The position numbers and the translations under genes are program-made. The notes beneath the pieces were generated by a model. The model saw nothing but the letters and a program-made list of their open reading frames with translations, had not been told where the DNA came from and made no database searches. Shown here in pieces: positions 6,955-45,006 of a stretch of 64,000 nucleotides of DNA (positions are counted from its first letter, which is position 1; the number at the start of each line of letters is the position of its first letter). The stretch is from Escherichia phage vB_EcoM_PTE-Eco09. The stretch lies in sequence record PQ306574.1; one strand, given 5' to 3'.

Positions 6955-8757
6955 TTAACCTACCCTTAGCCAACGATAGACAGTTCTGTATGGAGGAAGA
7001 ATACCCATCATTGATGGATCGGTATTTCCCTGATTAACTTTAACATTATCTTCTCGATATTTGGTAAACGCTGGACCTACTGCATCAGGGTCTACCTGAC
7101 AACCACCGATAATAATATTTCCGTTATCATCTTTTACAAGAACTCGATCGTTGCTCTGTAATTCAGGAATCATATTTTTCTTGATCTGGTATGCAACATC
7201 ACCACCGTTACCACCTGCGGTGTGTGTAGGTTGACCATGTGTATCAAGATCGTTGTTGTTTAGTGCGAAGTTTTGATCGCTTGCGTCAGAAGACCAACCA
7301 GCCAGAAATTCTCCTTCCGCATAACGTACCCATGTACCAATTCCCATATATGTCGCCGGGTTAGCTGGGTTATGCGCGTTTTCATAAATTGTGCCTATAG
7401 GATGGAAAATATCAAAGATGGAATAGATATCCATCACACGACCTGTATAATCTTCCATTGGGCGTTTAGTTGCTTGGCTTGGATTCTGGAAATCGGTATA
7501 TTCAATTCGATTTGTCAGAGTAACTTCATCTTCGTTATTAAGATAGATTTTATCTGCTTTTTCTTTAATACCGCCTACACCGTCCCATTCCATTAATGTT
7601 CCGATATCATTATTAAACCAGCGAATTGTGATAGTGTCTCTGTTATCTAGTGCTTTAGATAATTTAATACCAGTCACCACGCTGTTTTCGTCAAACATTA
7701 ATGAATAATCTTCACCAGATTCCACCCATTGACCGCCAGCAAGTACGCAGGTTTCTTCCGTTTCACCGTCAGCACCTTCACAAATAAAGGAAGGTAAATC
7801 CGCATCACCCGCTTTAATCATTTGTGTGCCGTTGATCAGCAATTCAAATGAATTTGGGTTAATAAGATCTCGCTTACTTACGCCTAATTCAGCATTAGTA
7901 AACTCTTTCTTATTAGCAAGTTCACCGACCCAAACTTCACCAGGGATGGATTCCAAAGTGGTCATTCCTGTTTCATAAACGCGGATTGTATGAGTAATAT
8001 AGCTTGACCGGAAGGATGCGATACCGTCCATATAAGTGATGATTTGAATGGTATCACCCGCCGAACAAGGGAAGCGTAATTTAATGCTTTTACCGTCAAG
8101 AGGAACAATATCACCGTTTTCACCGATTGAACCATAGTTAGAATCATCGGTTAAATCCTTGCCATAATAAAGCAAGTTACCGCGATAATACACTTCAACA
8201 TTTCGAATATTGTAAGTATTGGAACCAAACACATTAGGGAAGTCTGTTTGTCCTTCGGTTGCAATATAAACTTCCTTAGCGACTGTGCTTAAATCGGAAG
8301 TGGTGATAGTATCTACTCGTTTATTTTCGACATATTCCCAACGTCCGGGCGCACAATAAACCAATTCAACATCCATGAAATCTTTATACAACTCACGGTC
8401 GATTGGAGATCCCTTAATGGTATCACCTTGCGCTGGCTTCAACGTTACGTTATGTGCAGCCCATGAGCGCCAAACATCACGAAGTTTAATTGTTTTATTA
8501 TAATCACTCGCGCTTCCTTTAGGCAATTCAACAGAAACAGCGTTGTTCGTTGTATTAATCGCCCATGCATCACCAAAATTTGGTTTTAATACTGGTTGTG
8601 TGTGAGTTTTCCACGCGCCGGATGCATGAGGGATATCACCATCCCCCAGCTTAGTATAAAGTTCAGAAAAGTTGTCATTAATCTTTTGACCGCCTTTTCT
8701 TAGATAATCACCTGTACCGTCATCAACAACGTTACCGATATTAATTAATTGTTTCAT
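6955..8757 (-). CDS. 10: Baseplate wedge protein (T4 gp10-like)
   Basis: 600 aa (T4 gp10 602 aa); synteny. Confidence 0.85.
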   Translation of the reverse strand: MKQLINIGNVVDDGTGDYLRKGGQKINDNFSELYTKLGDGDIPHASGAWKTHTQPVLKPNFGDAWAINTTNNAVSVELPKGSASDYNKTIKLRDVWRSWAAHNVTLKPAQGDTIKGSPIDRELYKDFMDVELVYCAPGRWEYVENKRVDTITTSDLSTVAKEVYIATEGQTDFPNVFGSNTYNIRNVEVYYRGNLLYYGKDLTDDSNYGSIGENGDIVPLDGKSIKLRFPCSAGDTIQIITYMDGIASFRSSYITHTIRVYETGMTTLESIPGEVWVGELANKKEFTNAELGVSKRDLINPNSFELLINGTQMIKAGDADLPSFICEGADGETEETCVLAGGQWVESGEDYSLMFDENSVVTGIKLSKALDNRDTITIRWFNNDIGTLMEWDGVGGIKEKADKIYLNNEDEVTLTNRIEYTDFQNPSQATKRPMEDYTGRVMDIYSIFDIFHPIGTIYENAHNPANPATYMGIGTWVRYAEGEFLAGWSSDASDQNFALNNNDLDTHGQPTHTAGGNGGDVAYQIKKNMIPELQSNDRVLVKDDNGNIIIGGCQVDPDAVGPAFTKYREDNVKVNQGNTDPSMMGILPPYRTVYRWLRVG

Positions 8758-9608
8758 GTAGCAACCCCGATTTTAATAGTGTCTACGGCTTTAACTGCTA
8801 AACGAATATTTTCGCCAGTAGCCTTATACTCTGCATATACTTTATCGCCGGAACCTATGAAATAACGAACCGTGTATAATTCGTCTTCTGTCTTCTGCAA
8901 AACTGCATATTCCGTCGCATAAACTTTTCCGGCTTTAGAATCAATCATCAGTAGCGTTTCACTTGAACGCATTTTTGAACCGGATGTATTGCTAGCGGTA
9001 GTTAATAATTTGATGGAAACGTATTCTGTTTTTGCGGCAATAGCAACGTTTGTTGCTACTCCAGTTACGTTAACTGTTTTATCTAATGGCGTTGTTGTAT
9101 CGGTAAACATACTTTCGATACCCAATCGCCATGTTGCGCGACTACCTTCAACGGCAGTACACCAAACAGTGACTTTTGAAAATGGTTGTGTTATTGTAGC
9201 ATCACCGGAATAACCGCTAATAGAATCACCTGCTTGAGTTCGAATATTGAGCGGTGTCGTCGTTGAAAAGCTACCGTTACTATTTATGAATACAACACCC
9301 TCACCAACCTTTGCTTTAGGTAGAATAGCAATAAGTGCGCCTTGAGTTGTATCGATATCGTGTAGACTCCCAATCTCAACAGCGGACCCAGAGTAGCTTT
9401 GACGTGGATGTTTCTGATAGTATCCGGTTGCATGAATAACCATTCTTCCTACGCCGTGGTCTACGTCTTTAAACCGTTGATCAGCAAATGCGTCATATAT
9501 TGAATCAAAGTTATCGTTAATTTTATTGCCGCCATCATATAAGATATCGCCAGTCGATGGATTGCCGACAGTACCTGTGTCTATTCTTTTCTTTGGAACT
9601 TGTGCCAT
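8754..9608 (-). CDS. 9: Baseplate wedge / long tail fiber socket protein (T4 gp9-like)
   Basis: 284 aa (T4 gp9 288 aa); overlaps gp10 start by 4 nt; synteny. Confidence 0.8.
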   Translation of the reverse strand: MAQVPKKRIDTGTVGNPSTGDILYDGGNKINDNFDSIYDAFADQRFKDVDHGVGRMVIHATGYYQKHPRQSYSGSAVEIGSLHDIDTTQGALIAILPKAKVGEGVVFINSNGSFSTTTPLNIRTQAGDSISGYSGDATITQPFSKVTVWCTAVEGSRATWRLGIESMFTDTTTPLDKTVNVTGVATNVAIAAKTEYVSIKLLTTASNTSGSKMRSSETLLMIDSKAGKVYATEYAVLQKTEDELYTVRYFIGSGDKVYAEYKATGENIRLAVKAVDTIKIGVAT

Positions 9609-9635
9609 TGTTTAATTCCTCATGTTATGATGTAT

Positions 9636-9643
9636 TATTTATA
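9636..9643 (-). promoter_or_regulatory. T4-type late promoter motif TATAAATA upstream of gp9
   Basis: Plus strand reads TATTTATA (reverse complement TATAAATA) about 28 nt upstream of the gp9 ATG, directly after the cassette terminator. Confidence 0.55.
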
Positions 9644-9652
9644 AAATACATA

Positions 9653-9678
9653 CAAAAAAGCCGCCCACAAGGACGGCT
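9653..9678 (-). terminator. Hairpin plus U-run ending the MTase cassette (minus strand)
   Basis: AGCCGCC-CACAA-GGACGGCT stem (one bulge), then TTTTTT on the minus strand. Confidence 0.55.
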
Positions 9679-9683
9679 TATAA

Positions 9684-10523
9684 TTAAATGTCAAACAAAT
9701 CTGAGAGCGTCCCAGACTCGCTTTCCTGTTTCGGTAAGGTAATCTCCTTACTTTCTTCTATTTGTTCGTTAGGACGTGATTTAGGCGCTTCTACGGCTTC
9801 TTTCTCGTAATACCGAACCTCAACCACTTCTGTTAAAACGTTGGTACTATGCCATTCATCGCGATAGATTGATGTATCGATCCCACATCCGGCGTAAGTC
9901 ACCAAACCAGTTTGTTTGCTCCATTTTAGATATTTATTAGACTTCACTGATTCATCATAATAAGGTCTACCGGAATAAGCAAACCCAGCGGAACTAGCAG
10001 GAACAATAAAATAACCTACATCGGCAAACTTCTGGCCTAACGTCATAACCTTAAATTCAAACTCACCGCCAGTATATTCAAATACATCCTTTGTGTCTGT
10101 AGTATTGATTTTACCGAAAGGTGGATTGCTGATCACCACATCGAATTTTTCGTTTGACTCAAATTCGAATACATCGCTGGTGATCCATTCTGCCTCCGGT
10201 AATAGTCGCTTGCCAATCCGCGCAAATTCTGGATTGAGTTCGACGCATACGATCTTTTCTGGCTTACAACGATGTAACATACAAAAAGATAAGCGACCGA
10301 TCCCCGCACAAAGATCTAATACTTTTCCGGTGCAATATGCATCAATGGTAAAATCCCAGGCAAGCCATTCTGGGGTAAAGAATGCACCGGAACCGCCTAG
10401 ACCATCGCCATGATAGTTATTATAGCAAAATTCTTTTTCTTCATATGTCAATGGGCGATCTGAATTAATCAACTCCATCACCCGATCGTGTAATTTTTGT
10501 TCTTGTTTAGAAAGTCGTGCCAT
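9684..10523 (-). CDS. N6-adenine DNA methyltransferase-like protein (gamma-class motif order)
   Basis: FFTP motif, LDLCAGIG SAM-binding motif and VISNPPFG catalytic motif in that order, then a roughly 140-aa C-terminal region; no T4 counterpart at this position. Confidence 0.65.
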   Translation of the reverse strand: MARLSKQEQKLHDRVMELINSDRPLTYEEKEFCYNNYHGDGLGGSGAFFTPEWLAWDFTIDAYCTGKVLDLCAGIGRLSFCMLHRCKPEKIVCVELNPEFARIGKRLLPEAEWITSDVFEFESNEKFDVVISNPPFGKINTTDTKDVFEYTGGEFEFKVMTLGQKFADVGYFIVPASSAGFAYSGRPYYDESVKSNKYLKWSKQTGLVTYAGCGIDTSIYRDEWHSTNVLTEVVEVRYYEKEAVEAPKSRPNEQIEESKEITLPKQESESGTLSDLFDI

Positions 10524-10855
10524 TATTTAACCTTTGCTGTGACGGTAACGCTATGTCCCAAATAAACATGAGACATAAAGAACACAAAGTTTTTAAATTG
10601 CGGATTCTTACGAATCCATCGTTTCAATTTTCGAATGCAAGTTATACGATGGTCATAATTAGAATAACTAAATTCAATACCCTGTTTCATCATCTCGTGC
10701 ATTTCTTCGTATGTGTGCCATTGGTTATCATGTTTACAAAACCAATGAGTACCATAGAGTTTAGGATCTTGTGCACGTAGACCATAGTAATGCTTTTGCA
10801 TTGGGAACTTAGCTTTATTCATTGTGTAATGCAATTTAATATTTACGCGTGCCAT
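10523..10855 (-). CDS. Hypothetical protein (cassette ORF 2, 110 aa)
   Basis: ATG start; its stop shares one nucleotide with the MTase start codon; His/aromatic-rich; no recognisable motif. Confidence 0.45.
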   Translation of the reverse strand: MARVNIKLHYTMNKAKFPMQKHYYGLRAQDPKLYGTHWFCKHDNQWHTYEEMHEMMKQGIEFSYSNYDHRITCIRKLKRWIRKNPQFKNFVFFMSHVYLGHSVTVTAKVK

Positions 10856-11100
10856 TTTCTATTACCCCACATACCGAAAGTTGGATTATACACAAAATAG
10901 ATAGCTTCGTCGATAGTCTTGAATCGTTTAGTGTCATTCATGAAGTTGATACCCTCCCATAGTTCATCGGTGTAATCGGCTAGTGATGAATGAGTATGAT
11001 CGATGATCTCTCCGATCTTTTCACCGTTCGCGATCACATCCCAACCGCAAGGGGATACCTGAATTGCTTCACAATTATCTGTAAATTTACGACGTGCCAT
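10843..11100 (-). CDS. Hypothetical protein (cassette ORF 1, 85 aa)
   Basis: ATG with GGAGGA RBS; first gene after the cassette promoter; no recognisable motif. Confidence 0.5.
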   Translation of the reverse strand: MARRKFTDNCEAIQVSPCGWDVIANGEKIGEIIDHTHSSLADYTDELWEGINFMNDTKRFKTIDEAIYFVYNPTFGMWGNRKWHA

Positions 11101-11129
11101 AATTTATCCTCCGTTGTTTAGATGTGATC

Positions 11130-11158
11130 ATTATACCTTATCAGACAAGATTGTCAAC
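11130..11158 (-). promoter_or_regulatory. Sigma70-like early promoter driving the inserted cassette
   Basis: Minus strand GGTGTTGACA-N17-TATAAT, same context as the plus-strand early promoter modules at 26-61 kb. Confidence 0.6.
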
Positions 11159-11161
11159 ACC

Positions 11162-11194
11162 CAAAATAGAAAAGCCAACTCTCTCGAATTGGCT
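11162..11194 (-). terminator. Hairpin plus U-run after gp8 (minus strand)
   Basis: AGCCAA-N10-TTGGCT stem followed on the minus strand by TTTCTATTTT. Confidence 0.5.
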
Positions 11195-11208
11195 TTTAAA
11201 TCATACAC

Positions 11209-12204
11209 TTAGAACTCAAACAATACAGAAACAAGTTCTGTTTGATCTAATGACCGAACGATAGGTTGTCGGTTTTCCATGTAGATCATTTCGCCTGAGT
11301 GTGGCTCTAAGTCTTGCGGTCGGTACTTATCTTTGACCGCTTTAACGTCTGGATCGCTAGGGCGTGCTTTCTTTTCCAATGGGTTAAGGATAATGCTTAA
11401 CTGACGGAAACCAGTATTACCCACTAACGCGGTAGTTGGGAATTGCGCAGAGTCCATATAAGCCTGAAAACGCAAAGTTACTACTTTCAGCCGATAAAGC
11501 AGATTATAGTCATTATACCAGGTGGTCACATTGTCATAACCCCAACGCGCCGGATCTTGTCGCAGTTCATCGGGGAACGGTACAACAATATGTTCATTGG
11601 TGCAACGGTTGATCGCCGCATCAGGTGGAATTGTGTACAGATATTCCCAACGATATCCATCACCCATATCAATAGAATCGCCCTTTCCTACAGGTGGCGC
11701 AATTGATTCATGGGTAGGTGTCCACTTTCCGCCCAGCTTCAAACACTCTACTTTAGCGTCAATGCTTGAAATAGAGCAGTAACCGCGATCAGGAACATCG
11801 GTTACACGGTAAACCATCCAGCCGCTACCAACATCTGTACGGTTATATGGTGCTGAGTTTACGACAACAATGTCATTGATAAAGAACGTGCGCGGGTTAT
11901 CCTGTCCGGTATCACCCCAATCTTTACGAGGGATAACCGCATCAAGAAGTGATTTGTTAATCTTAACCGCCCCCATCATATGGGTCCACATGTCAACAAC
12001 ACCAGCCGTTGAATCGGTCGGATAAGGTGGGGCAAAGCCCACCTCTTTTTCGTTTTCTGACCACGGCTCCGAACGTCCAAACGTTCCATAAATTGTAATT
12101 TGATTTGCTCCATCGCCTACAGAATTATAGAAGTTCAGAAGTTTTTCTGTTCTGAATTTGCTAGTAATGATTGAGCGATAGATCACACTATTTTCATTAG
12201 CCAT
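11209..12204 (-). CDS. 8: Baseplate wedge protein (T4 gp8-like)
   Basis: 331 aa; ENSVIYRSIITSKFRTEKLLNFYNS and GFAPPYPTDS resemble T4 gp8 DSSVIYRAIVTSKFRTEKMLNFYNS. Confidence 0.9.
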   Translation of the reverse strand: MANENSVIYRSIITSKFRTEKLLNFYNSVGDGANQITIYGTFGRSEPWSENEKEVGFAPPYPTDSTAGVVDMWTHMMGAVKINKSLLDAVIPRKDWGDTGQDNPRTFFINDIVVVNSAPYNRTDVGSGWMVYRVTDVPDRGYCSISSIDAKVECLKLGGKWTPTHESIAPPVGKGDSIDMGDGYRWEYLYTIPPDAAINRCTNEHIVVPFPDELRQDPARWGYDNVTTWYNDYNLLYRLKVVTLRFQAYMDSAQFPTTALVGNTGFRQLSIILNPLEKKARPSDPDVKAVKDKYRPQDLEPHSGEMIYMENRQPIVRSLDQTELVSVLFEF

Positions 12205-15200
12205 TAATTTTCCTCTGTGTCGGATTCTTCGGATCGCGTGGATTCCCTATATTATCCTTCAACCGTTTATCTACAAGTTCACGGAACATAGAGAATGTTA
12301 CCGCCGACTGGTCAAACAGTGGACTCATTGCAAATCTTCGTTCGCTTGCTTTAAGTCCGTGGAACAATTCGCTGTTCTCCTGATCATATTCAGGAGGAAC
12401 CGGAAATTCTTCACCAATTAAAGGTGAAGTCAAATATAATGCTTTTCCGGTAAGCGGGTCTTTCTTAATGTTTCCGTCAACGTCAAGGTCTGCCACCCGA
12501 TCAGGATACACGCTAGGCAATCCGCTGTCAAACTTATAATTTTTCAGAGATTGAATTATAGTCTCGGTGTGCTTCATGCTTAACCCGCTGTTAATGAACA
12601 TTGTAAGCAGGGTAACACCGATAAACCCAAAGCCGACAGGATGAACGAATCGCATTACATCATTTGCATAGCGCGAAACTGGCAATGCACTTTTAATCTT
12701 CATGGTGTATTGGCTTCGTGAGCGGTTGATATAGTCGATTGAACTACTCAACAACTCTTTACCACGTACACCAACAAGGATCATCCCTTCAAACGCTGTT
12801 TTCTCTGATTTGATCACTTGACCTTCTTCGAACCGCCCGATCAGGTTATGAATGGTTACTCGCCAGCGTAGGCGACCACCTTCATATTCCCTTTCAAGAT
12901 ACGTCACGTTAGCCCGTCCGGTTGGAGTATAAATCGTGCGACCTACGATATCCTCGTCAATGTTCGTTGAACTAACAACAATATCATACTCTAGTCCGGC
13001 TTGTGATTCAACCTCAATTTCCACATCTTCATTATAAAGTAACTTAAACAAGAACTTATAAGAAGCCTCCACGCCCTTAGTGGAATAAAAATCTGATTTG
13101 CGGGATTCAAAGAATCTTACTACCGCATCTCGCTTGTTTTTATCTGCATAGATGTTTCGTTTGTTCATCTCTGACCAAAGATACTCATATGCATCTTTCT
13201 CGCGTGGATATTTGTTTTTAATCAGATTTTTTAGTTTATTATAATATGTTCCTGAACCATCGCTTAAGAATTGCAGATAATATTCAGAGAATTTTCTGAA
13301 ATTTTCGTTCTCAAGTAAAAAGCTATCAGGGGTCATCTTATTCAGTAAAGGCCGCAAATCTGGATCTTGCTCTCGATCGTAGTGAACCGGAACCCAGGGA
13401 ACCTCTCGAACCTGATTTTGCAATTCAGCAACAAATGCTACATTTGTAGGTTTCCAATATACACCAACCTGATCACGAACACGATAATTAAATTGATAGA
13501 ATCCTATGATCTCTCCTGTGTTTTTATGGAACATTACACCGGATGCATATTGTTTGAATCCTTCAAATTTAACATTGTTAAGATAACAGGTCACGGTCCC
13601 TTTATCATAAACTTCTCGGTTGACCCTATTTTGGTCAAGAATGCCAGACGTATCAACTTCTTGAGTATAGATAACCTCTGGATAAACAACCAACGGGCGA
13701 TTATCATTTGTGATCCACACACGGACACCGTTTCGACGCATCCATGTATAATCAGCCTCGTTATAATACGCTTGCGGTCCTAACTCCCAAATACGCAAAT
13801 CATCATAACTTGCTCTGAAAGTAGTTTGATGTATTTTCTTATCAGTTAGATAAGTTGGCTCCTGAGAATATTTTACAGCTTCGCCCAATTCATATTTCTC
13901 GGCAGTTTCTGGATCAGGTAAAATGCTTTCGAAGTGATGATTATAATGGCTTATGAACACCTCATCACCATTGGTTGACATATTACTGAACCCATGCTGA
14001 ATGTATTCCCTTTCCTGCGGAGTGTTGCCAAATACTCTCTGAAAAGACAGACCATCACTCCCTATTAAGTATACACCCGCATCATCTGACGGAACAACGT
14101 TTTCTGGTTTAGTTGGATCTTGATAACGCTGTTTAACTTCACCCGTAACAAATACAAGCAATTTACCGTCGATCACATCCATTTTCTGAATGACAGCTTT
14201 ATCATTTCCTGTTACTCGGATAACATCAGGATCGAATATTTTTTCTCCAAACGTAGGCGAACCCTGTACGGTATCAACAGGAGTATTCTTAAGACGAATC
14301 CGGCGAATAACATCTTTAGCACCAACCCACAAATAGTCATCACTACACGCCATAGCTTCGGCGTATTTTGTGGTATCACCTGTTAATCTGGAAAATACAC
14401 CAAAGACCTCAACGTCAAAGCCTAAATCGTTTTCGTCACCGACCTTTGCAAAAGTGATCGTATCATCACTAAATCGAACATCGTCCGCGCTCCATCGAGT
14501 ATCGCTCGCTTGTCGTCCGTAAAAGATTCGGTCATATCCTAAAACGTAAGTAGTGGTTTTAGACTGATAAACGCATGTACGGGAAACCGGATTGCCTACA
14601 CGGTCATTAAAAGCCTTGTATGCTTTCCATGATTGACCTTTATCATTTGACACTTTCACGATCGGCTGGAACCGTTCGAAAAGGTACAAAACACCGTTCA
14701 TTTCCGCTAACATAGTGCGGTTTATATCAGTACAAACTTTTTCTATATGATCCTGTATTTCATGAAAGTTCTCATCAACTACAATGTAGTTTGAGATATT
14801 TGTCATGTTTGCATATTCAGGACTAAAGACAAAATCTTCCTTCATCAATGATGCTTGAATAAGGTCGGTATTAAACTTGACATACTCTCGATTATCGTAT
14901 GTAAATTTTTCCTTTATAAACTCGTTTGCAAGGTTGAACTCTCGCATCATAGAAAAATTATATGCGTTTGTTTTAAATGTCTGAAACTCTTCTGTCTCAA
15001 CCCATTTACTTTGTTCAAATCCTTCTGCGGCTACTGCTACACGAAACTTGTAATAATATTCTGGAAAAAGGTTTTTATCCTCAAACCAGTTTTGTTCGGC
15101 AGTATATCCCAGGTTTACCCAGCTTAACTCATCGACGGGGATGATCTCCCCGTCTCGTGTTCTGGTTTCGGCTAACTCCACAAAATAAAAGAAGTTTTCG

Positions 15201-15283
15201 CCTACGTCATCCCATGTGATATACGCCTGATTAGCAGACAATTTTTCTATTGTCAAGCTAGTTACACTAGGCGCTTTAATCAT
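12197..15283 (-). CDS. 7: Baseplate wedge initiator (T4 gp7-like)
   Basis: 1028 aa (T4 gp7 1032 aa); synteny between gp6 and gp8. Confidence 0.85.
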   Translation of the reverse strand: MIKAPSVTSLTIEKLSANQAYITWDDVGENFFYFVELAETRTRDGEIIPVDELSWVNLGYTAEQNWFEDKNLFPEYYYKFRVAVAAEGFEQSKWVETEEFQTFKTNAYNFSMMREFNLANEFIKEKFTYDNREYVKFNTDLIQASLMKEDFVFSPEYANMTNISNYIVVDENFHEIQDHIEKVCTDINRTMLAEMNGVLYLFERFQPIVKVSNDKGQSWKAYKAFNDRVGNPVSRTCVYQSKTTTYVLGYDRIFYGRQASDTRWSADDVRFSDDTITFAKVGDENDLGFDVEVFGVFSRLTGDTTKYAEAMACSDDYLWVGAKDVIRRIRLKNTPVDTVQGSPTFGEKIFDPDVIRVTGNDKAVIQKMDVIDGKLLVFVTGEVKQRYQDPTKPENVVPSDDAGVYLIGSDGLSFQRVFGNTPQEREYIQHGFSNMSTNGDEVFISHYNHHFESILPDPETAEKYELGEAVKYSQEPTYLTDKKIHQTTFRASYDDLRIWELGPQAYYNEADYTWMRRNGVRVWITNDNRPLVVYPEVIYTQEVDTSGILDQNRVNREVYDKGTVTCYLNNVKFEGFKQYASGVMFHKNTGEIIGFYQFNYRVRDQVGVYWKPTNVAFVAELQNQVREVPWVPVHYDREQDPDLRPLLNKMTPDSFLLENENFRKFSEYYLQFLSDGSGTYYNKLKNLIKNKYPREKDAYEYLWSEMNKRNIYADKNKRDAVVRFFESRKSDFYSTKGVEASYKFLFKLLYNEDVEIEVESQAGLEYDIVVSSTNIDEDIVGRTIYTPTGRANVTYLEREYEGGRLRWRVTIHNLIGRFEEGQVIKSEKTAFEGMILVGVRGKELLSSSIDYINRSRSQYTMKIKSALPVSRYANDVMRFVHPVGFGFIGVTLLTMFINSGLSMKHTETIIQSLKNYKFDSGLPSVYPDRVADLDVDGNIKKDPLTGKALYLTSPLIGEEFPVPPEYDQENSELFHGLKASERRFAMSPLFDQSAVTFSMFRELVDKRLKDNIGNPRDPKNPTQRKING

Positions 15284-17184
15284 TGAGCAATTGCCTCCAG
15301 ACTAATAGTTGTGTACTGAGGACGGAGATCGTTTTCAAACACGATCAAAGAACCGTCTTTAGTAAAGATGTTATCAGCAATCGGTTTAGCTGTCAACTCA
15401 ATATATGAACCAGTAAAGCGATCGCTATTGATATTCAGTTTACCCAGATCCCATGAAATAAGGTCGTCATAATGCTGAACCTCTCCAACCTCAAAGTATA
15501 GGTCCGCCCCGTCAATAACCTCTTTATCAAAATCAGTGCCGGAATAGTGCGGTAAAGCGATTGTAGAATCAACAGGGAAAGGTCCAACCAGCAATTTAGC
15601 TAAACCGGATTCTTTGTTCATTTCTGTACTTACATAATGGATTGGATATTGCTTGTCGTCCTTTTCGAAGTTGAATGAACTAGACTTGATTCCGCTCTTA
15701 TACTGGTTTAAAAACTTGATTCCAGCCATCGGTGCTTTATAGAAGTTGTCGATCTCTCGCACCATCTCGATTTCTGCACTAGAACCTATCACTGATACAT
15801 CAGCTTTGTCAATACGCGCAAGCATTTTAGACTTACTAAAGGTCTGGTTAAAAATTTCCACTTCGTCGGTATAATATGCATCAATCTGATCAATAACCGC
15901 ACCGCGCAACCACTGCTCTGATTCTGACAAGTCGTTGATTGAATAGGAAACTTTAATATTCTGTTTAATATACAGATAGTTAGGGTCAATGATGCTCGGC
16001 GTGATAGGGGCAAGGTTATATTTTGCCAGATAATCCCGCATATCTTCTTTTTGAACGGTTGTCAAGCGCAAGCCAGATTTAGGCTTAACAGCAACAAAAG
16101 CATAACCCGGTTTTTCTCGGTCGGTGAAACATTGTACCGCCTGAACAATACTACCAAAACGGCTAGACACAAAAGCCTCATAGTCGGAAGCAGTCACACA
16201 ACGACGCTGAGATTCACGCATTACCGGAGCAAGTTCACGGATACGTTCGATTGATTCAGGATCACCACCACCATCTGCACCGACATAATCACGATCATTT
16301 GTCGGATTCTCAATAATTTTAACAATAGAGATAGATGCCAATGTATCCGCGTATGTGAAATTGACAGATCCGTTAGCTTCCGCGCCTTTAGTGCTGATAT
16401 ATTCGATAACAATATTAGCACCAGTTGACGGCTTAAGTCCACCAATATAATTTGCTTCCAGTGCACCGCCAGCAGCAGATAAAGTTGATTCACCTTCACC
16501 AAAGAAGATTTCTGTATGACCGTCTACGGTTTCACGCATATAGAAAATATTACTAGCGCCAGTTGCATTAACAATGCTTTCTCGCGTCCAGTCTTTCCAT
16601 TCAGCACCGTCTACCCACAATTTAACCTGAGCGCGGTCAATATCAGGATCGCGGATCAGAATTTGTTTCTTCGGATCAAATAACATTTCTGTACGAACAA
16701 TACGACCTTGTGCGACTTTAAGCATAGGCGTATATAAACCATTTGAACCTAAAACACTCACAACGTCTTCTGTAGTCACAAACGGATAAGACGTCTGGCG
16801 ATCCACACTTGCAATAAATTTAGTTCCTCGTGGGATTCGAATACTTGCCGGATTTCGCGGATGTGTTACGTGCAACATAATTGTAGTCGATGCACTAGTT
16901 TTACTTGCTGGCAAATATCCTAAATCTTGCGCGGCTTGAACAACTGAACTACGCTTAATTGCCGTTCTGATAAAAGATTCATATAGCGCGGCGTTAGCGA
17001 ATTGCTGAATATAAAGGGTATTATATGCGAGCAAGTCCATCAATACGTTAATACCAGCACCATTAAAATCAAAATCTTTAAATTCTTCCTGGTTTCTCAT
17101 CCAGTCTGTTAATGCGCTTTTAATTTCATCAAACGTAGCAGCATTAAAAATATCAGGAATTTGTGTAATCTTTTGCTTTGTCAT
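15280..17184 (-). CDS. 6: Baseplate wedge protein (T4 gp6-like)
   Basis: 634 aa (T4 gp6 660 aa); synteny. Confidence 0.85.
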
Positions 17185-38164: not shown

Positions 38165-38760
38165 TGGCGCAATTATATTTCTACTATGCATCTATGAACG
38201 CTGGCAAATCAACTTCTCTGTTACAAAGTGCTTATAACTATACCGAACGTGATATGCGAGTATTAATTCTTAAGCCAGCGATTGATAATCGAGATTCAGA
38301 AAGTGAAGTTGTTTCCCGAATTGGTCTAAGTGCTCCAGCGATCACCTTCACTAAATCGGATGATCTTTTCGATTTGGTTTATCGTGAATCATTAGGTAAG
38401 CGTAGACCGGATCGCTGGCGTCCTGATGCTGTATTTGTAGATGAAGCCCAATTTATGACTAAAGAGCATGTTTTAGGCTTGTGTGCGCTTGTTGATGATG
38501 CAAATATCCCTGTACTGTGCTATGGCCTTCGCACCGACTTTCAGGGCAATCTATTTGAAGGATCTGCGGCATTAATGGCATTTGCTGATAAACTGGTCGA
38601 AATGAAGGGTATTTGTCATTGTGGCAAGAAAGCAACAATGGTCCTTCGTGTAGATAAAGAGGGTAATGTTATTCGCGATGGTGCTCAAATAGAAGTTGGT
38701 GCAGAGGATAAATATGTCTCTGTGTGCCGTAAACATTTTATTGACGGTACTACCAAATAA
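38164..38760 (+). CDS. tk: Thymidine kinase
   Basis: YASMNAGKSTSLLQ P-loop, VFVDEAQF, YGLRTDFQGNLFEGS, CHCGKKA resemble T4 Tk. Confidence 0.9.
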   Translation: MAQLYFYYASMNAGKSTSLLQSAYNYTERDMRVLILKPAIDNRDSESEVVSRIGLSAPAITFTKSDDLFDLVYRESLGKRRPDRWRPDAVFVDEAQFMTKEHVLGLCALVDDANIPVLCYGLRTDFQGNLFEGSAALMAFADKLVEMKGICHCGKKATMVLRVDKEGNVIRDGAQIEVGAEDKYVSVCRKHFIDGTTK

Positions 38761-38779
38761 GAGTTAATCATAAATAAAG

Positions 38780-38819
38780 CCCCAGATTATAAATATAACT
38801 GAATATTTTTAATCTGGGG
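38780..38819 (+). promoter_or_regulatory. Long hairpin carrying a TATAAATA late-promoter motif in its loop
   Basis: CCCCAGATT..(22-nt loop containing TATAAATA at 38788-38795)..AATCTGGGG, about 33 nt upstream of the ATG at 38829. Confidence 0.35.
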
Positions 38820-38828
38820 GAATGACTT

Positions 38829-39131
38829 ATGTCATTTATTCGTAAAACTCTAACAGCGGCAATATGCTTGACTGCGGTCGGAAGTGTCAGTGCTGATCAA
38901 TATGATCCAACTGGTGACTTTACTGATTATTTCGACGGTGCAATGATAGTATATGTAAACAAAATATCTCCTTCCATTGAAACCAGCCAGAAATTTCATG
39001 CCCATATTATGAAGATGTATGCTCGTAGTAAATGTATGGATTCTAAGCAGTGTTTTATTATGGGGGAATATGCCGCACAACAGTTTGTTATGTTGCATAA
39101 TATGGAGAATCGAGAACATGAAATTCAGTGA
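38829..39131 (+). CDS. Secreted protein of unknown function (100 aa)
   Basis: Signal peptide MSFIRKTLTAAICLTAVGSVSA; GGGGGAA RBS. Confidence 0.5.
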   Translation: MSFIRKTLTAAICLTAVGSVSADQYDPTGDFTDYFDGAMIVYVNKISPSIETSQKFHAHIMKMYARSKCMDSKQCFIMGEYAAQQFVMLHNMENREHEIQ

Positions 39132-39516
39132 TTTTCGAAAGACGTCCGAAGATGGGAAAGCTAATAAAGTTGACCGCTTTATCGGTGAATGTCTGATGAG
39201 TGTTACTTATATGCATTCTGCGCATTTTGGAGTAACTGGTCCTGGATCTTATGCAAAACATAAGGCTCTAGAAGAGTTCTATCTTGAAATGCAAGAATTG
39301 GTTGATGATTTCACTGAAACCAATATTGGGATCACTGGTCGTTATCAGCCAACGTTGGTCGTCCGCAAGGAGATGAGCGAAATTGCCTATTTGCAAGAGT
39401 TAACGCAAATGGCTAGTGAGATTTATAATGATGTTGATAGCTCGTTACAGAGCGTTTTAGACGATATCAAAGCTCTATGCTTTAAAACAATTTATAAACT
39501 CACTCGATTGGCTTAA
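39118..39516 (+). CDS. Hypothetical protein (132 aa)
   Basis: First ATG with a weak RBS in a long track ORF; start uncertain. Confidence 0.45.
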   Translation: MKFSDFRKTSEDGKANKVDRFIGECLMSVTYMHSAHFGVTGPGSYAKHKALEEFYLEMQELVDDFTETNIGITGRYQPTLVVRKEMSEIAYLQELTQMASEIYNDVDSSLQSVLDDIKALCFKTIYKLTRLA

Positions 39517-39750
39517 TGTTAGTCACATTGGGATACATACCAGAAGTAAAAGAATACTAGCATCAACACAACTATTTGTCTTCCTCATACTTTCGCGTGT
39601 TCAATTACTGCCGAATCGGAAGACCCGTCTAAGACGAGGAAGGGTTATCATTGGAAAGGGATGGTGAATTGGTTACTATGTTTAACTAGTTTAGCAAAGG
39701 TCGATTCAAACACTACTATACAAATGGACGTGAATAAAATATAATCAAAA

Positions 39751-39780
39751 AGCCATCCGAAAGGGTGGCTTTTTCGTTTT
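39751..39780 (+). terminator. Rho-independent terminator
   Basis: AGCCATCCGAAAGGGTGGCT hairpin followed by TTTTTCGTTTT. Confidence 0.65.
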
Positions 39781-39786
39781 TAGGTG

Positions 39787-39815
39787 TTGACAACCGGAAT
39801 AGGGTATAGCATAAT
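39787..39815 (+). promoter_or_regulatory. Early promoter module (TTGACA-N17-CATAAT)
   Basis: GGTGTTGACA..TAGCATAAT. Confidence 0.65.
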
Positions 39816-39844
39816 GCACACATTGACAACAAAGGAGAATCAAA

Positions 39845-40054
39845 ATGATTAATCCAGTAGCCGCAGCACTTGCTTCCGAAGAAACTTTGAAGTATATGGT
39901 AGAACATGCAGCAAAGAAAGGAGAAATTGTTACTGCCGATGAGATCGTAGAAACCATGCTCCGCGATCCGAAGGGTAACACTGCAAAGTTTTTCGGTGAT
40001 CATCTTAAGCTGGCTTACAAAACAATTATGGAGACCGTGAAGAATGCAAAATGA
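39845..40054 (+). CDS. Hypothetical protein (69 aa)
   Basis: AAGGAGAATCAAAATG leader. Confidence 0.55.
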   Translation: MINPVAAALASEETLKYMVEHAAKKGEIVTADEIVETMLRDPKGNTAKFFGDHLKLAYKTIMETVKNAK

Positions 40055-40382
40055 TGTGATTGAAATTATTATGAATCAATACCGAAACCGGATTTGGTCT
40101 GGACGTATCAAAGAAGAAAAGGCAAAACGGATCATCGAAAAATATGCTGAAAAGACTAAGCAAGCGCCAACGGCTAACAGAGTTATGATTCTTAAATGTC
40201 TGGTGCTTTCCGGTGACGATATGCCTATTGATGCAGAGACAGCCACCGATTTTCATAAGACCTATCGCCAGTGTGATGTAATTTTTACTTCTGGCTTCGG
40301 TAGTTATGACTCTATTATGTGGAATTTAATGCACCTTGACTCAACGATCTGGGATGTGCTTTCAGAGGAGGGTTACAAATGA
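40044..40382 (+). CDS. Hypothetical protein (112 aa)
   Basis: ATG overlapping the upstream ORF end. Confidence 0.5.
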   Translation: MQNDVIEIIMNQYRNRIWSGRIKEEKAKRIIEKYAEKTKQAPTANRVMILKCLVLSGDDMPIDAETATDFHKTYRQCDVIFTSGFGSYDSIMWNLMHLDSTIWDVLSEEGYK

Positions 40383-40729
40383 ACATTGACATTCAACGAC
40401 TAATTGATCATCTTCATGCGGGAATACCTTATCATGGCGACGTTACCCGCGATATTCTTGATGTGTTGGAATATACCCAGCAAGTGATCAACGAAAAGCA
40501 AGCATTAGAATCACGGATCGACGAGGCAATAGGAAACATTGCAACCGAAGATGAATTAGATAATCACTTTGGACCTGTTCTTGATGCTCTTATGGCTGCG
40601 CGTGATACCAAACTGAAACAGGATAAACAAGAATTTATCCTTGATGGTTTAGCTCGTTATCACAATGCAATCGATATTATGAATAACCAGCATGATTATG
40701 CTATTAGTGTTTTGCGAGGTCTGGCATGA
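40379..40729 (+). CDS. Hypothetical protein (116 aa)
   Basis: GAGGAGGG RBS; ATGA overlap. Confidence 0.5.
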   Translation: MNIDIQRLIDHLHAGIPYHGDVTRDILDVLEYTQQVINEKQALESRIDEAIGNIATEDELDNHFGPVLDALMAARDTKLKQDKQEFILDGLARYHNAIDIMNNQHDYAISVLRGLA

Positions 40730-41010
40730 AAGACACAAACGAATTTAACGGTATTCAGGTAAGCCCGAATTTTATTGTTCCATCACTGGTGACTAAGCTG
40801 AATGGTCATATGGTCGCTTTGTCTTCCACACCGCCAGAATCAGGAAAGTTTATTACTATCGTAGTTTATGCGGGGCAAATTTTCTCTCATGATTGCTGCA
40901 TGAAAAATGGTCAGTTGATGGTTGCAAATTATGACTACGGCGACCTTGAATGGGAAGTTTTAGGTCTGGCTAAAGGTGCTGAAATTCTGGGCTACATTCG
41001 ATTAGTTTAA
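40726..41010 (+). CDS. Hypothetical protein (94 aa)
   Basis: GCGAGGT RBS; ATGA overlap. Confidence 0.5.
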   Translation: MKDTNEFNGIQVSPNFIVPSLVTKLNGHMVALSSTPPESGKFITIVVYAGQIFSHDCCMKNGQLMVANYDYGDLEWEVLGLAKGAEILGYIRLV

Positions 41011-41028
41011 AATTTTTCTTAGAAAGTG

Positions 41029-41057
41029 TTGACAGCGTTCCGGTGTTATTGCATAAT
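41029..41057 (+). promoter_or_regulatory. Early promoter module (TTGACA-N17-CATAAT), conserved-leader type
   Basis: AGTGTTGACA..TTGCATAAT..ATCGAAACGAGATAC..AGGAGAATCAAAATG. Confidence 0.65.
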
Positions 41058-41097
41058 ACACACATCGAAACGAGATACACTTTCTAGGAGAATCAAA

Positions 41098-41319
41098 ATG
41101 GCAACTGTTAAAATTATCAAATCTTCCGCTGGTTTCGGTTTCATGCGTGGCGCTAAGTACCCGATGATTATTGAAAACGTTGCCATCGAAGATGGTATGG
41201 CTAAAGTAACCAGCCGTCAATTGTTCGAAGCTGGTGTTAAAACCGCTGAATCATGGGCGCTTCGCTATCCTAACAAAACATGGTCTTTCTTCCTGGATGG
41301 TGAAGCAGAGGTCATCTAA
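41098..41319 (+). CDS. Hypothetical protein (73 aa)
   Basis: ATG after the promoter and AGGAGA RBS. Confidence 0.55.
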   Translation: MATVKIIKSSAGFGFMRGAKYPMIIENVAIEDGMAKVTSRQLFEAGVKTAESWALRYPNKTWSFFLDGEAEVI

Positions 41320-41337
41320 GTAATATTATCAATCAAT

Positions 41338-41360
41338 GCCCCTTAATTGGGGCTTTTCTT
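41338..41360 (+). terminator. Rho-independent terminator
   Basis: GCCCCTTAATTGGGGC hairpin followed by TTTTCTT. Confidence 0.6.
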
Positions 41361-41373
41361 GTGAGGAAATTTT

Positions 41374-42150
41374 ATGGCAATATCTTCTGGATGGGTAGGA
41401 TCATCTGCGGTGTCCGAGACTGGTCAACGGTGGATGAGCGCCGCAATGCAAGCTGTACGCTTAGGTCGTCCGGCGTATATGTCGGCAATGGTCGGACGCT
41501 CTAAAGAGATTCATTATAGCATTGGTGCTAGTAACTCTTACAATAAAGACACTCTTATTAACTGGATGAAAGCACAAGGATCTACTCCTGTAGTAATTAC
41601 TATCACGGGTGATATTGTTTCCCAATCTACTGGAGTTCCTTGTCTTGACTTCCCTAGCTCGTTAACAAACGAATATGTAACATTGATCATTAACTCCGGT
41701 GTGACTGTCTACGGACGTGGGGGTAATGGTGGTAGTAACGCTGCTGGCGCTGCTGGTGGAAACGCAATCAATAACGCTATCGGTACACGTCTACGAATTA
41801 CAAATAACGGTGCTATCGCTGGTGGCGGCGGTGGCGGCGGTGGCGGTAACAGGGGTAAACTATCATTTGGTGGTGGCGGTGGTCGCCCATTCGGTGCTGC
41901 CGGGTCTTCCTCTAATATGGGTTCTGGTGCAACCGCTGGCTCCATTTCCGCTCCGGGTAAAGGATCTGTTGGTTCGGGGTCTCTTAGTGCATATACAGGC
42001 GGTGCGGGCGGTAACGTTGGTGCTGCTGGAGGAAGATGTAATACTCATGGGAACTGTACAGAATATAACGGTGGTGCTGCTGGTAAAGCCGTTACTGGTA
42101 ATGCTCCACGCTGGGATAAAGTAGGCACGATCTACGGCGATCGCGTGTAA
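41374..42150 (+). CDS. Glycine-rich receptor-binding adhesin-like protein (T2/T6-type gp38-like), orphan
   Basis: N-terminal GWVGSSAVSETGQRWMSAAMQAVRLG..ITITGDIV resembles the gp37-binding domain of T2-type gp38 as recalled; C-terminal poly-Gly motifs (GGGGGGGGGN, FGGGGGRPFGAAG) alternating with variable segments. Confidence 0.55.
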   Translation: MAISSGWVGSSAVSETGQRWMSAAMQAVRLGRPAYMSAMVGRSKEIHYSIGASNSYNKDTLINWMKAQGSTPVVITITGDIVSQSTGVPCLDFPSSLTNEYVTLIINSGVTVYGRGGNGGSNAAGAAGGNAINNAIGTRLRITNNGAIAGGGGGGGGGNRGKLSFGGGGGRPFGAAGSSSNMGSGATAGSISAPGKGSVGSGSLSAYTGGAGGNVGAAGGRCNTHGNCTEYNGGAAGKAVTGNAPRWDKVGTIYGDRV

Positions 42151-42157
42151 TTTTATG

Positions 42158-42190
42158 GGCTATCCTTCGGGATAGCCTTTTTTTGTTTTT
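42158..42190 (+). terminator. Rho-independent terminator
   Basis: GGCTATCCTTCGGGATAGCC hairpin followed by TTTTTTTGTTTTT. Confidence 0.7.
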
Positions 42191-42195
42191 GGGTG

Positions 42196-42223
42196 TTGAC
42201 AAAGATAATCACAATGCTATAAT
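42196..42223 (+). promoter_or_regulatory. Early promoter module (TTGACA-N16-TATAAT)
   Basis: GGGTGTTGACA..GCTATAAT. Confidence 0.65.
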
Positions 42224-43196: not shown

Positions 43197-43447
43197 TCAC
43201 CGGATATATTCCATATTCAACGACAAAACACATTATCGGATTCGAAGACATAGAAAAGTCTTGCTTTCCTCTCAAGGTTGAAGTAGACTTTATTACAGCG
43301 AACGGGTGGGCTTATATTACCGTAGAAGAAATGAAGCGAGTGGGGTGGGAAAACTGCATACACCTACCGCATCTTATCCTAGATGTTCGCGCTGGTGAAA
43401 TTGATATTGCTGGAAAGATCTATGGAGATAATGTAAATGAAAATTGA
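43193..43447 (+). CDS. Hypothetical protein (84 aa)
   Basis: AAGGAGA RBS; ATGA overlap. Confidence 0.5.
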   Translation: MITGYIPYSTTKHIIGFEDIEKSCFPLKVEVDFITANGWAYITVEEMKRVGWENCIHLPHLILDVRAGEIDIAGKIYGDNVNEN

Positions 43448-43694
43448 AATTATTGACCGTGCTGGGTATACTTTCATGGAAAAAGTTAAACTTCCTATCA
43501 TTGTTGAAGGTCGCCCCTTATGTCAAGGATTCATGATAAAGACCAGAGAACTACGAAATGCGGGTGTTCCTGTTGAATCATGTTTCAGTGATGATTATGA
43601 ATGGTGTTTCAGTGGTTTACGTGCACATAAAGTAAAAGAAGCACGAAAAGCATCATGGTTTACTCGCTTGAATAACTGGTTGAGGAAACTGTGA
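43437..43694 (+). CDS. Hypothetical protein (85 aa)
   Basis: TGGAGATA RBS; N-terminal AGYTF motif shared with the next ORF. Confidence 0.5.
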   Translation: MKIEIIDRAGYTFMEKVKLPIIVEGRPLCQGFMIKTRELRNAGVPVESCFSDDYEWCFSGLRAHKVKEARKASWFTRLNNWLRKL

Positions 43695-44032
43695 TGTGTG
43701 AAATGAAAAAGTATATGATTCTAAGTGATTCAGGATACACCTTCTTACAAGGTATTGATAGTGACTCGCGTCCTATTGTATATGGCAAGGAACATCCGAC
43801 CATTCCTGGGATCATTCTTGTTACGACAACATCACTTCGTAGAGTGTCAGAAAGTCCATACCTACAAAACGTAAAGCAGGACCGAGAATGGGCTTTCGAG
43901 TTAGGTAAAGACCTTGTTGAATGGGTAAACTGTGAAGACAAGAACCAACGAAATCATGAAGGGAAGATTTCACGAATTGTACTGAGAGGAAAACTTGATG
44001 AAATCAAAAACAGGATTCTACAATCAATGTAA
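43694..44032 (+). CDS. Hypothetical protein (112 aa)
   Basis: ATG (the track start is GTG); SGYTF motif. Confidence 0.5.
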   Translation: MCEMKKYMILSDSGYTFLQGIDSDSRPIVYGKEHPTIPGIILVTTTSLRRVSESPYLQNVKQDREWAFELGKDLVEWVNCEDKNQRNHEGKISRIVLRGKLDEIKNRILQSM

Positions 44033-44252
44033 CAGGGTATTCATTGTCCTGCTGGATTCGGAAAACTATCCAGAACTCTCTAAAACGCGTTTTCCGTGCG
44101 TTGTTGAAGCACGCAAGGCATATGCACCAGATAAACAGTTTATAGTGTTAGCGAGCGAAATAGAGCGGTTAGGGGCGATTCCTAAACATGATGAATATGT
44201 GTTTTGTAAGGCGTTCTCTGTGCCTCATTTTGGTGTAGAGTTAATTCACTAA
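43998..44252 (+). CDS. Hypothetical protein (84 aa)
   Basis: ATG with GAGAGGA RBS (the track start is TTG). Confidence 0.45.
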   Translation: MKSKTGFYNQCNRVFIVLLDSENYPELSKTRFPCVVEARKAYAPDKQFIVLASEIERLGAIPKHDEYVFCKAFSVPHFGVELIH

Positions 44253-44339: not shown

Positions 44340-44618
44340 ATGAGCAACCTGTCTTTCGCTAAAGTAGAAATTTCTAAAACTCGCGGTGGCTTTAAAATCA
44401 AAACTTCCAACATCACTTCCTGTCGTGGTTGCGTCCGGTTTGCGTTCGACTTGGCAGCGAAGCTGGGTATTAAAACCTTTACCGTTGAGAGCGGATCTAC
44501 CTGGACCACTCTGATTGTTACTGCCGCTTGGATCAATGGCGAGTATGTAGAAAAAGCATACTTTGACATTTTCTATGACTACGAAGAAAAATGCTTTTAT
44601 GCACTGCAAGACATGTAA
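44340..44618 (+). CDS. Hypothetical protein (92 aa)
   Basis: ATG after the promoter and AAGGAGAATCAAAATG leader. Confidence 0.55.
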   Translation: MSNLSFAKVEISKTRGGFKIKTSNITSCRGCVRFAFDLAAKLGIKTFTVESGSTWTTLIVTAAWINGEYVEKAYFDIFYDYEEKCFYALQDM

Positions 44619-44628
44619 GGAGGACAAT

Positions 44629-44937
44629 TTGACAACACAAGATATTGTTAATGTACTTTATATCTGGATTACTGGTGCAATGATCTCGTATCTAGTATTC
44701 TGCTTGTATGCCAGATTCGACAAGGACACCAAAGAGGTCGATACAGGAGCATATGCCATTTGTTCTATTGTATGGCCTTTAACGTGGGTAGTTGTGATCA
44801 TCGCTTACTCATACAAACTTCTTAAATGGCTTGGACTATCGATCGCGGGGAAACCGGAAGCGAAGCCGCGCACGCATAAAGGATTTACTCCAAAACAAGA
44901 AGACGACGGTCGATATAAACCGGAAGAAGATTTTTAA
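44629..44937 (+). CDS. Membrane protein (about 102 aa), TTG start
   Basis: AGGAGGA RBS 5 nt before TTG; two hydrophobic segments; start uncertain. Confidence 0.4.
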   Translation: MTTQDIVNVLYIWITGAMISYLVFCLYARFDKDTKEVDTGAYAICSIVWPLTWVVVIIAYSYKLLKWLGLSIAGKPEAKPRTHKGFTPKQEDDGRYKPEEDF

Positions 44938-44943
44938 AAACTG

Positions 44944-44972
44944 TTGACATGAAAATGCGGTTATCATATAAT
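44944..44972 (+). promoter_or_regulatory. Early promoter module with stem-loop over the -10 box
   Basis: TTGACA-N17-TATAAT; inverted repeat GCGGTTA/TAACCGC (44957-44978) encloses the -10. Confidence 0.6.
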
Positions 44973-45006
44973 AACCGCATCAAATGAACGATGTGAGGAT
45001 TATATT

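Follow-up and report, generated by a model that had tools for sequence, protein, structure and literature searches.

Displaced gene 38 of a Krischvirus coliphage encodes a long-tail-fiber adhesin whose receptor-binding block is exchanged within the gene

The window analyzed here, a stretch of 64,000 nt, is part of a Krischvirus genome, that is, of an RB49/Phi1/JSE-like "pseudo-T-even" phage. It contains gene 38 (41374-42150, + strand), and we hold with high confidence that this gene encodes the single-copy adhesin of a Krischvirus coliphage, which caps the long tail fibers, is located at a fixed but displaced address, and is both mutated and swapped within the gene. In this explanation, the identity, fold, single copy, address, and breakpoints come from the present analysis, the virion role and host-range mutations were taken from the literature, and expression is inferred. 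Both the gene and its unusual address are real but already known, and the finding is an ordinary one.

Results

Gene 38 encodes a full-length gp38 adhesin

The open reading frame (ORF) starts with ATG, encodes 258 amino acids followed by a stop codon, and is preceded by the ribosome-binding site GAGG (41363-41366), 7 nt 5' of the start codon. An earlier note, made from the sequence alone, had described a 258-aa ORF with a gp37-attachment N-terminus and a glycine-rich C-terminus, and both features were found. The share of glycine is 9% for aa 1-110 versus 32% for aa 111-258, with glycine runs at G150-158 and G166-170. The N-terminus matches the Pfam family PF21721 (Gp38_N; aa 1-40, E=3.9e-18, 65.6 bits, profile positions 1-40 of 40), and the remainder matches PF05268 (GP38; aa 45-258, E=1.6e-72, 244.4 bits, profile positions 1-218 of 218). 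Both matches pass the curated cut-off, which is 25 bits for either family, and cover the whole profile; with these E-values, the likeness to gp38 is far above chance. Further matches were to PHROG 2056, "tail fiber protein; host specificity" (E=1e-98), to the gp38 of Salmonella phage S16 (PDB 6F45_D), which aligned along the whole protein (1e-49), and to the receptor-binding domain of PP01 gp38 (PDB 9V85; 1.5e-34).

An AlphaFold model built on 43 homologs had a pLDDT of 92.3 and a pTM of 0.84, and its comparison with 6F45_D resulted in TM scores of 0.81/0.84 and an rmsd of 2.8 Å across the whole chain. When the PDB was searched with this model, significant scores were obtained for gp38 structures only, and the next matches had E values above 3. 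Profile search and structure prediction thus agree on the gp38-type adhesin that had been proposed. Taken together with the identity to gene 38 of RB49, Phi1, and JSE (95-97% at the nucleotide and 95-98% at the protein level), these data establish that 41374-42150 encodes a full-length long-tail-fiber tip adhesin, or receptor-recognizing protein, of the T2/T6/S16 gp38 type. Two further ORFs overlap gene 38, a Pro-rich one on the minus strand (41709-41945) and one on the plus strand (41717-42124); both were rejected as frame artifacts of the GGN-rich coding sequence.

As defined by the authors of the S16 structure, the gp38 family is marked by a bundle of three helices at the N-terminus, with tryptophans at the helix apices, by a beta-helix in the center, and by a polyglycine-II sandwich in which glycine-rich motifs (GRMs) alternate with hypervariable loops. 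All of these family-defining features were found in the gene 38 protein. Its N-terminal domain (aa 1-40; 41374-41493, + strand) forms three short helices in the model (residues 8-16, 21-27, and 36-39), preceded by W7, W20, and Y35. The role of this domain in gp37 attachment is taken from the S16 structure description, in which the apex Trp residues of the helices insert into gp37 pockets. The third apex residue is Trp in S16 gp38 but Tyr35 in the window protein; at this position, Trp is present in 23 of the 43 homologs, whereas all Krischvirus-type N-termini have Tyr. A simple pattern, which does not give an exact motif count, detected 7 glycine-rich runs, and S16 has 10 GRMs. Column entropy among the homologs peaks between the glycine-rich runs and is highest at aa 181-210 and 221-230. 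S16 gp38 (6F45 chain D) and PP01 gp38 (9V85) have the same three-part architecture (~41% identity, TM 0.76-0.88), but their loop sequences, and presumably their receptors, differ from those of the window protein. In addition, the genes of S16 and PP01 directly follow gene 37, whereas gene 38 of the window is ~100 kb away from it, on the early strand.

Gene 38 is displaced throughout the genus

The 24-kb stretch around gene 38 is 97-98% identical to records of the RB49 group. The neighbors of the gene, an ORF080 homolog on the 5' side and an ORF078 homolog on the 3' side, are the same in Phi1, RB49, JEP8, GEC-3S, and JK32, and RB49, Phi1, and JSE share with the window the address, neighbors, and flanking hairpin and promoter elements. 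This address lies within the rI/tk to dam/nrdC/49 stretch, a region on the early strand. Its description as hyperplastic was fair, as Arbiol et al. 2010 placed the Phi1 ORFan 84.1, located 1.6 kb 5', in such a region. All 72 matching records carry gene 38 at one and the same address, and neither presence/absence nor positional polymorphism was seen among them. The Krischvirus records contain one gp38 locus each, by DNA search as well as by tblastn, which was run over 50,697 phage records. With one place per genome, an additional gp38 gene, or the leftover of one behind gene 37, was rejected for the Krischvirus relatives.

In Phi1, genes 34-37 occupy 145-154.6 kb, whereas gene 38 is located at 45 kb. 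The gene order is 37-ORF252-t, where t encodes the holin and ORF252, in the usual slot of gene 38, has 79 codons for a protein without similarity to gp38 and without a Pfam family. The 37-38-t synteny, which is typical of the gp38 family but does not strictly define it, is therefore absent from Phi1. The Phi1 gp37 bears a Peptidase_S74 intramolecular chaperone domain (aa 872-931), as do S16-type fibers. The earlier note would have counted it as a refutation if the gene proved to be the only gp38 copy, brought behind gp37 by a rearrangement; this applies in part, as it is the only copy in the relatives, but the slot after gene 37 is taken by the 79-aa ORF. The claim that the gene is not next to a tail-fiber gene held up. 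No homologs of gp35, gp36, or gp37 are present within the 64-kb window, and its sole fiber genes are gene 12 (4897-6297, - strand) and wac (3128-4897, - strand), both at a distance of ~35 kb and on the opposite strand; genes 34-37 are ~100 kb off in the relatives. Judging from these relatives, which are 95-98% identical, the window phage would likewise carry a single gene 38 and a gp37 partner.

The displacement of RB49 gene 38 from the other tail-fiber genes was stated by Trojet et al. 2011, citing Desplats 2002. This genus-wide Krischvirus arrangement is already known, having been described as early as 2002. In the GenBank record of Phi1, the gene is named "gp38 distal long tail fiber adhesin".

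Flanking elements and expression

The terminators and the early promoter that had been reported around gene 38 are all present. A 5-bp GC hairpin with a 6-nt loop, GCCCC-TTAATT-GGGGC (41338-41353), followed by TTTTCTT, forms a terminator- or attenuator-like element (41338-41360, + strand). It lies directly 5' of the ribosome-binding site and has no promoter after it, is invariant in RB49, Phi1, JEP8, GEC-3S, and JK32, and is annotated as a terminator in GEC-3S. The nearest promoter-like site 5' of the gene is TTGACA-N17-CATAAT (41029-41057, + strand), a sigma-70-type early promoter with 11/12 matching positions that is annotated as a promoter in GEC-3S. It precedes the ORF080 homolog (41098-41319, + strand; 73 aa, unknown function, no Pfam match), which is situated between the promoter and gene 38. 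On the 3' side, a 9-bp hairpin (42157-42178) with a T-run to 42190 is followed by the perfect (12/12) promoter TTGACA-N16-TATAAT (42196-42223), which serves the next ORF downstream of gene 38. By the definition of Arbiol 2010, this composite (42157-42223, + strand) is of the PeSL type, and it is conserved in the relatives. The flanking hairpins and promoters are nearly invariant in five relatives, and the GEC-3S record annotates them as terminators and promoters. As to structured RNA near gene 38, no Rfam match was obtained at E <= 0.1, and the fold of the gene 38 leader was not better than that of shuffled sequences (z = -0.37).

The nearest late-promoter motif on the 5' side, TATAAATA at 38788-38795 (+ strand), is located 34 nt before the start of rI (38829) and 2.6 kb 5' of gene 38. 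It corresponds to Pl:48756, the sole late promoter predicted in RB49 near gene 38 on the strand of this gene. As had been claimed, there is no such motif close upstream: neither TATAAATA nor the core ATAAATA occurs on the + strand from 38795 to gene 38. However, the window shows no enrichment of TATAAATA, with 4 occurrences versus 6.4 expected, so that its absence near the gene is weak evidence by itself. A search of 38600-41374 for a hidden late promoter, using the exact motif, the ATAAATA core, and one-mismatch variants, retrieved only the rI cluster (38707, 38769, and 38788) and TATGAATA at 40678, which is not credible as a late promoter because its mismatch falls in the conserved core. A strong 12-bp terminator-like hairpin at 39747 separates the rI late promoter from gene 38.

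Gene 38 is without a promoter of its own and is probably co-transcribed with the ORF080 homolog. The arrangement of these elements makes it most likely that transcripts start at the sigma-70-type promoter (41029) and pass the weak hairpin (41338), possibly with a late contribution by read-through from the late promoter of rI (38788). The hairpin could also block early read-through into gene 38. In RB49, neither MotA nor middle promoters were found by Nolan et al. 2006, and this phage is not on their list of those with an AsiA orthologue, which in our opinion makes prolonged sigma-70 transcription plausible. A literature search for transcript or virion-proteome data on Krischvirus or RB49-like phages returned nothing relevant. 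A speculative proposal, to which we give a rather low probability, is that the Krischvirus adhesin has been uncoupled from the late tail-fiber operon. It would then be governed by a sigma-70 early promoter and attenuation at the conserved 5-bp hairpin, not by a gp55 late promoter, following an ancestral relocation into the PeSL-rich region via PeSL mini-circles. If true, a virion receptor-binding protein would be on an early-type program in a phage reportedly lacking MotA and the middle mode.

The receptor-binding block is exchanged within the gene

In many relatives, the flanks are 95-99% identical to the window, whereas gene 38 is only 80-90% identical. The divergence was placed by comparison with GEC-3S and JEP8, using sliding identity and a list of the mismatches. 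In these comparisons, the flanks, both hairpin/promoter modules, and codons 1-105 are 97-100% identical, whereas dense differences, including two indels, are confined to ~41695-42108 (codons 108-245), a block with ~60-79% nucleotide identity to the GEC-3S/JEP8 type. The synonymous divergence pS was 0.57-0.62 in codons 108-245 as compared to 0.03-0.04 in codons 1-100, and pN was far below pS throughout the gene. The jump of pS from 0.03 to ~0.6 indicates that the block is a recombinational replacement and not the product of locally accelerated evolution, and it rules out fast divergence by selection alone as the origin of the variable C-terminus. The GEC-3S/JEP8-type gp38 thus has the address, flanks, and N-terminal 105 residues of the window, but another receptor-binding allele over codons 108-245, with two indels and a pS of ~0.6. 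Mismatches, pS, entropy, and mosaicism consequently delimit an exchangeable receptor-binding block of glycine-rich motifs and hypervariable loops (aa 108-245; 41695-42108, + strand).

Mosaicism in both directions was observed among 120 database homologs. Some have a window-type N-terminus (at least 96% identity) and a C-terminus with only 62-75% identity, whereas others are only 47-67% identical in the N-terminus but 83-91% in the C-terminus. Two homologs, P0014 and P0025, in which the C-terminal domain is closer to the window than the N-terminus, were traced to their contigs. Both genes are in the canonical place, directly after a gene for a Peptidase_S74-bearing gp37. In the P0014 locus (L007), gp38 is followed by the holin t, and one of the two contigs reads 34-35-36-37-38-t-asiA...motA, which is the T-even layout. 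Between the window and these loci, only gene 38 aligns (53-100% identity in 60-nt bins), and no flanks are shared.

The earlier note had suggested that a receptor-binding cassette embedded among shuffling promoter modules might be a route to host-range exchange. Host-range exchange at this locus does occur, but the breakpoints (~41695 and ~42108) are intragenic and the flanking modules remain 97-100% identical. The sequence patterns indicate that host-range exchange at the gene 38 locus is real, that it goes by homologous recombination inside the gene, and that it is independent of the address of the gene and of the flanking promoter modules. The swap of codons 108-245 is an instance of a process that is already known, in which the receptor-binding domain is exchanged inside the gene; intragenic homologous recombination as the means of gp38 host-range exchange was described by Tetart 1998 and Trojet 2011.

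Alternative explanations

The earlier note had called the gene an orphan, and it could conceivably be a surplus or decaying relative of the gp38 gene, such as a specificity module kept in reserve in the accessory region, and not the virion adhesin. The small ORFs of unknown function around it, its position on the early strand, and the lack of a nearby late promoter are in line with this idea. However, none of the Krischvirus genomes examined has any other gp38 homolog, gene 38 is full length, its product has two intact terminal domains and a confident fold, pN is much below pS throughout, and RB49 mutants selected for an altered host range were changed in gp38 only. Since the sole gp38 of the genus is hit by host-range mutations, it is a functional adhesin and not an orphan extra copy, and we regard the latter as extremely improbable. 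Equally improbable, in our view, is that the protein is an assembly chaperone of the T4 gp38 type, absent from the virion, as is implied by the product name "distal long tail fiber assembly catalyst" in the RB49, JSE, and GEC-3S records. This name was inherited from T4, whose gp38 is, according to the S16 authors, very different in sequence and role and is set apart by that description. The gene 38 protein matches the adhesin family and the solved adhesin structures from end to end, adhesins account for all of its significant matches, and the Phi1 gp37 has an intramolecular chaperone domain of its own.

Slightly more weight, although still very little, can be given to the exchange of the entire gene as a mobile cassette, by recombination at flanking PeSL modules, as the source of host-range exchange. 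A canonical PeSL lies directly 3' of the gene (42157-42223), with a promoter (41029) and a hairpin (41338) on the 5' side. At a distance of 1.6 kb, indels are associated with a PeSL (ORF084.1 in Phi1 and an ORF of 712 aa in JK32), Arbiol et al. 2010 documented mini-circles mediated by PeSLs in both RB49 and Phi1, and the ancestral relocation of gene 38 might have gone by such a route. The PeSL and ORFan cassettes of RB49 and Phi1 described by these authors are in the same type of hyperplastic region, but gene 38 is not an ORFan and is, in all probability, an essential virion gene, and it has no PeSL directly on its 5' side. There, the hairpin at 41338-41360 has no promoter and is therefore not a PeSL, and no hairpin precedes the promoter at 41029, so that the composite of stem-loop and sigma-70 promoter is found on the 3' side only and not on both sides. 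Moreover, none of the 72 records showed a polymorphism in presence or position, and no breakpoints were seen in the flanking elements; the divergent block (41695-42108) is intragenic, whereas the identity remains at 97-100% in the hairpins, in the promoters, and across codons 1-105. With respect to the T-even-type loci, the similarity is restricted to gene 38, where it is patchy (53-100%), and does not extend to the flanks.

Discussion

Proposed mechanism and host-range residues

The mechanism that we favor for the displaced, single-copy adhesin is based on homology to the S16 complex and on RB49 genetics. By homology to S16, the C-terminal intramolecular chaperone of gp37 would cleave itself off before gp38 docks, and one gp38 monomer would then cap the tip of the gp37 trimer via its N-terminal three-helix bundle (aa 1-40). 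The central beta-helix would bear the polyglycine-II sandwich (~aa 111-245), and the distal hypervariable loops would touch the receptor, which in relatives of RB49 is one of certain O antigens or a protein of the outer membrane, for example, OmpA. Specificity is altered by two routes, namely, by point mutations in the loops and by homologous recombination that swaps codons ~108-245. This recombination extends to other phages of the T-even type, whose gene 38 is in the canonical place.

Golomidova et al. 2022 treated RB49 gp38 as the long tail fiber's receptor-binding protein. RB49 mutants that grow on the resistant host E. coli F17 carry E230K, either alone or together with Y231S, and these changes in gp38 are the sole differences of the mutants from the wild type. 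The window protein differs from RB49 gp38 at H225 and C228, adjacent to the host-range positions E230 and Y231. Both residues are in the most variable loop (aa 221-230), which has a mean entropy of 2.4 bits. C228 (TGT, 42055-42057) is unique among the 43 aligned homologs, 33 of which have Gly at this position, and His225 (codon at 42046-42048) is uncommon among the homologs. C228 and H225 could represent a specificity variant or a sequencing error. The window protein further differs by D80 and D256, which are N and A, respectively, in the four relatives directly compared.

In RB49-like phages, which serve in phage-therapy cocktails, host range is determined by gene 38, and its product should therefore be labeled as a receptor-recognizing adhesin and not as "assembly catalyst", "tail assembly", or "hypothetical". 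Beyond the correct annotation of the gene, the finding is of little importance. It does offer a clean example of how the receptor-binding half of gp38 is exchanged within the gene, even between phages that differ in the address of gene 38.

Additional observations on the neighborhood and on public records

Several other features were noted. In a number of public records, the adhesin is named "assembly catalyst", "tail assembly", or "hypothetical protein". The annotated coding sequence of JEP8 gene 38 (L003:4001-4780) has an internal start, at 4073 and not at 4001, by which the attachment domain is lost. A T-even-type phage contig (Logan SRR13646885) has a second ORF of 167 aa directly after gene 38 (L006:6844-7347); it contains the Gp38_N domain only (Pfam, 5.7e-21), with a different C-terminus, and may be a tandem alternative adhesin.

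A PeSL-type site at 39517-39844, with a hairpin (39747-39774) and a promoter (39787-39815), lies between rI.-1 and the ORF084 homolog and is an indel hotspot in the relatives. Phi1 has ORF084.1 at this site (L001:6238-6366), where its identity to the window dips to 78-85%, and Krischvirus JK32 has an ORF for a 712-aa protein of unknown function (L008:1228-3366) with a sub-threshold Ig_3 match only. The left part of the window contains late structural genes on the - strand (3128-6297 and 6955-17184), including those for fibritin, gene 12, gp10, and gp7. Fibritin has a Fibritin_C domain, and the short tail fiber encoded by gene 12 has a Collar domain and weak similarity to the gp34 repeats; the baseplate genes are ~35 kb from gene 38, on the other strand.

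The ORF080 homolog (41098-41319) shows weak paralogy to the ORF at 43437-43694 (31% over 58 aa), which in turn matches the ORF at 43703-44032, and the ORF at 42762-43196 matches that at 43995-44252. These similarities suggest that several of the small ORFs in this hyperplastic region belong to a family of small proteins that has been duplicated. Finally, identity at 44774-44974 is 68-73% to Phi1 and JEP8, yet 99% to GEC-3S at 44774, which marks a local mosaic patch inside a 124-aa ORF (44563-44937).
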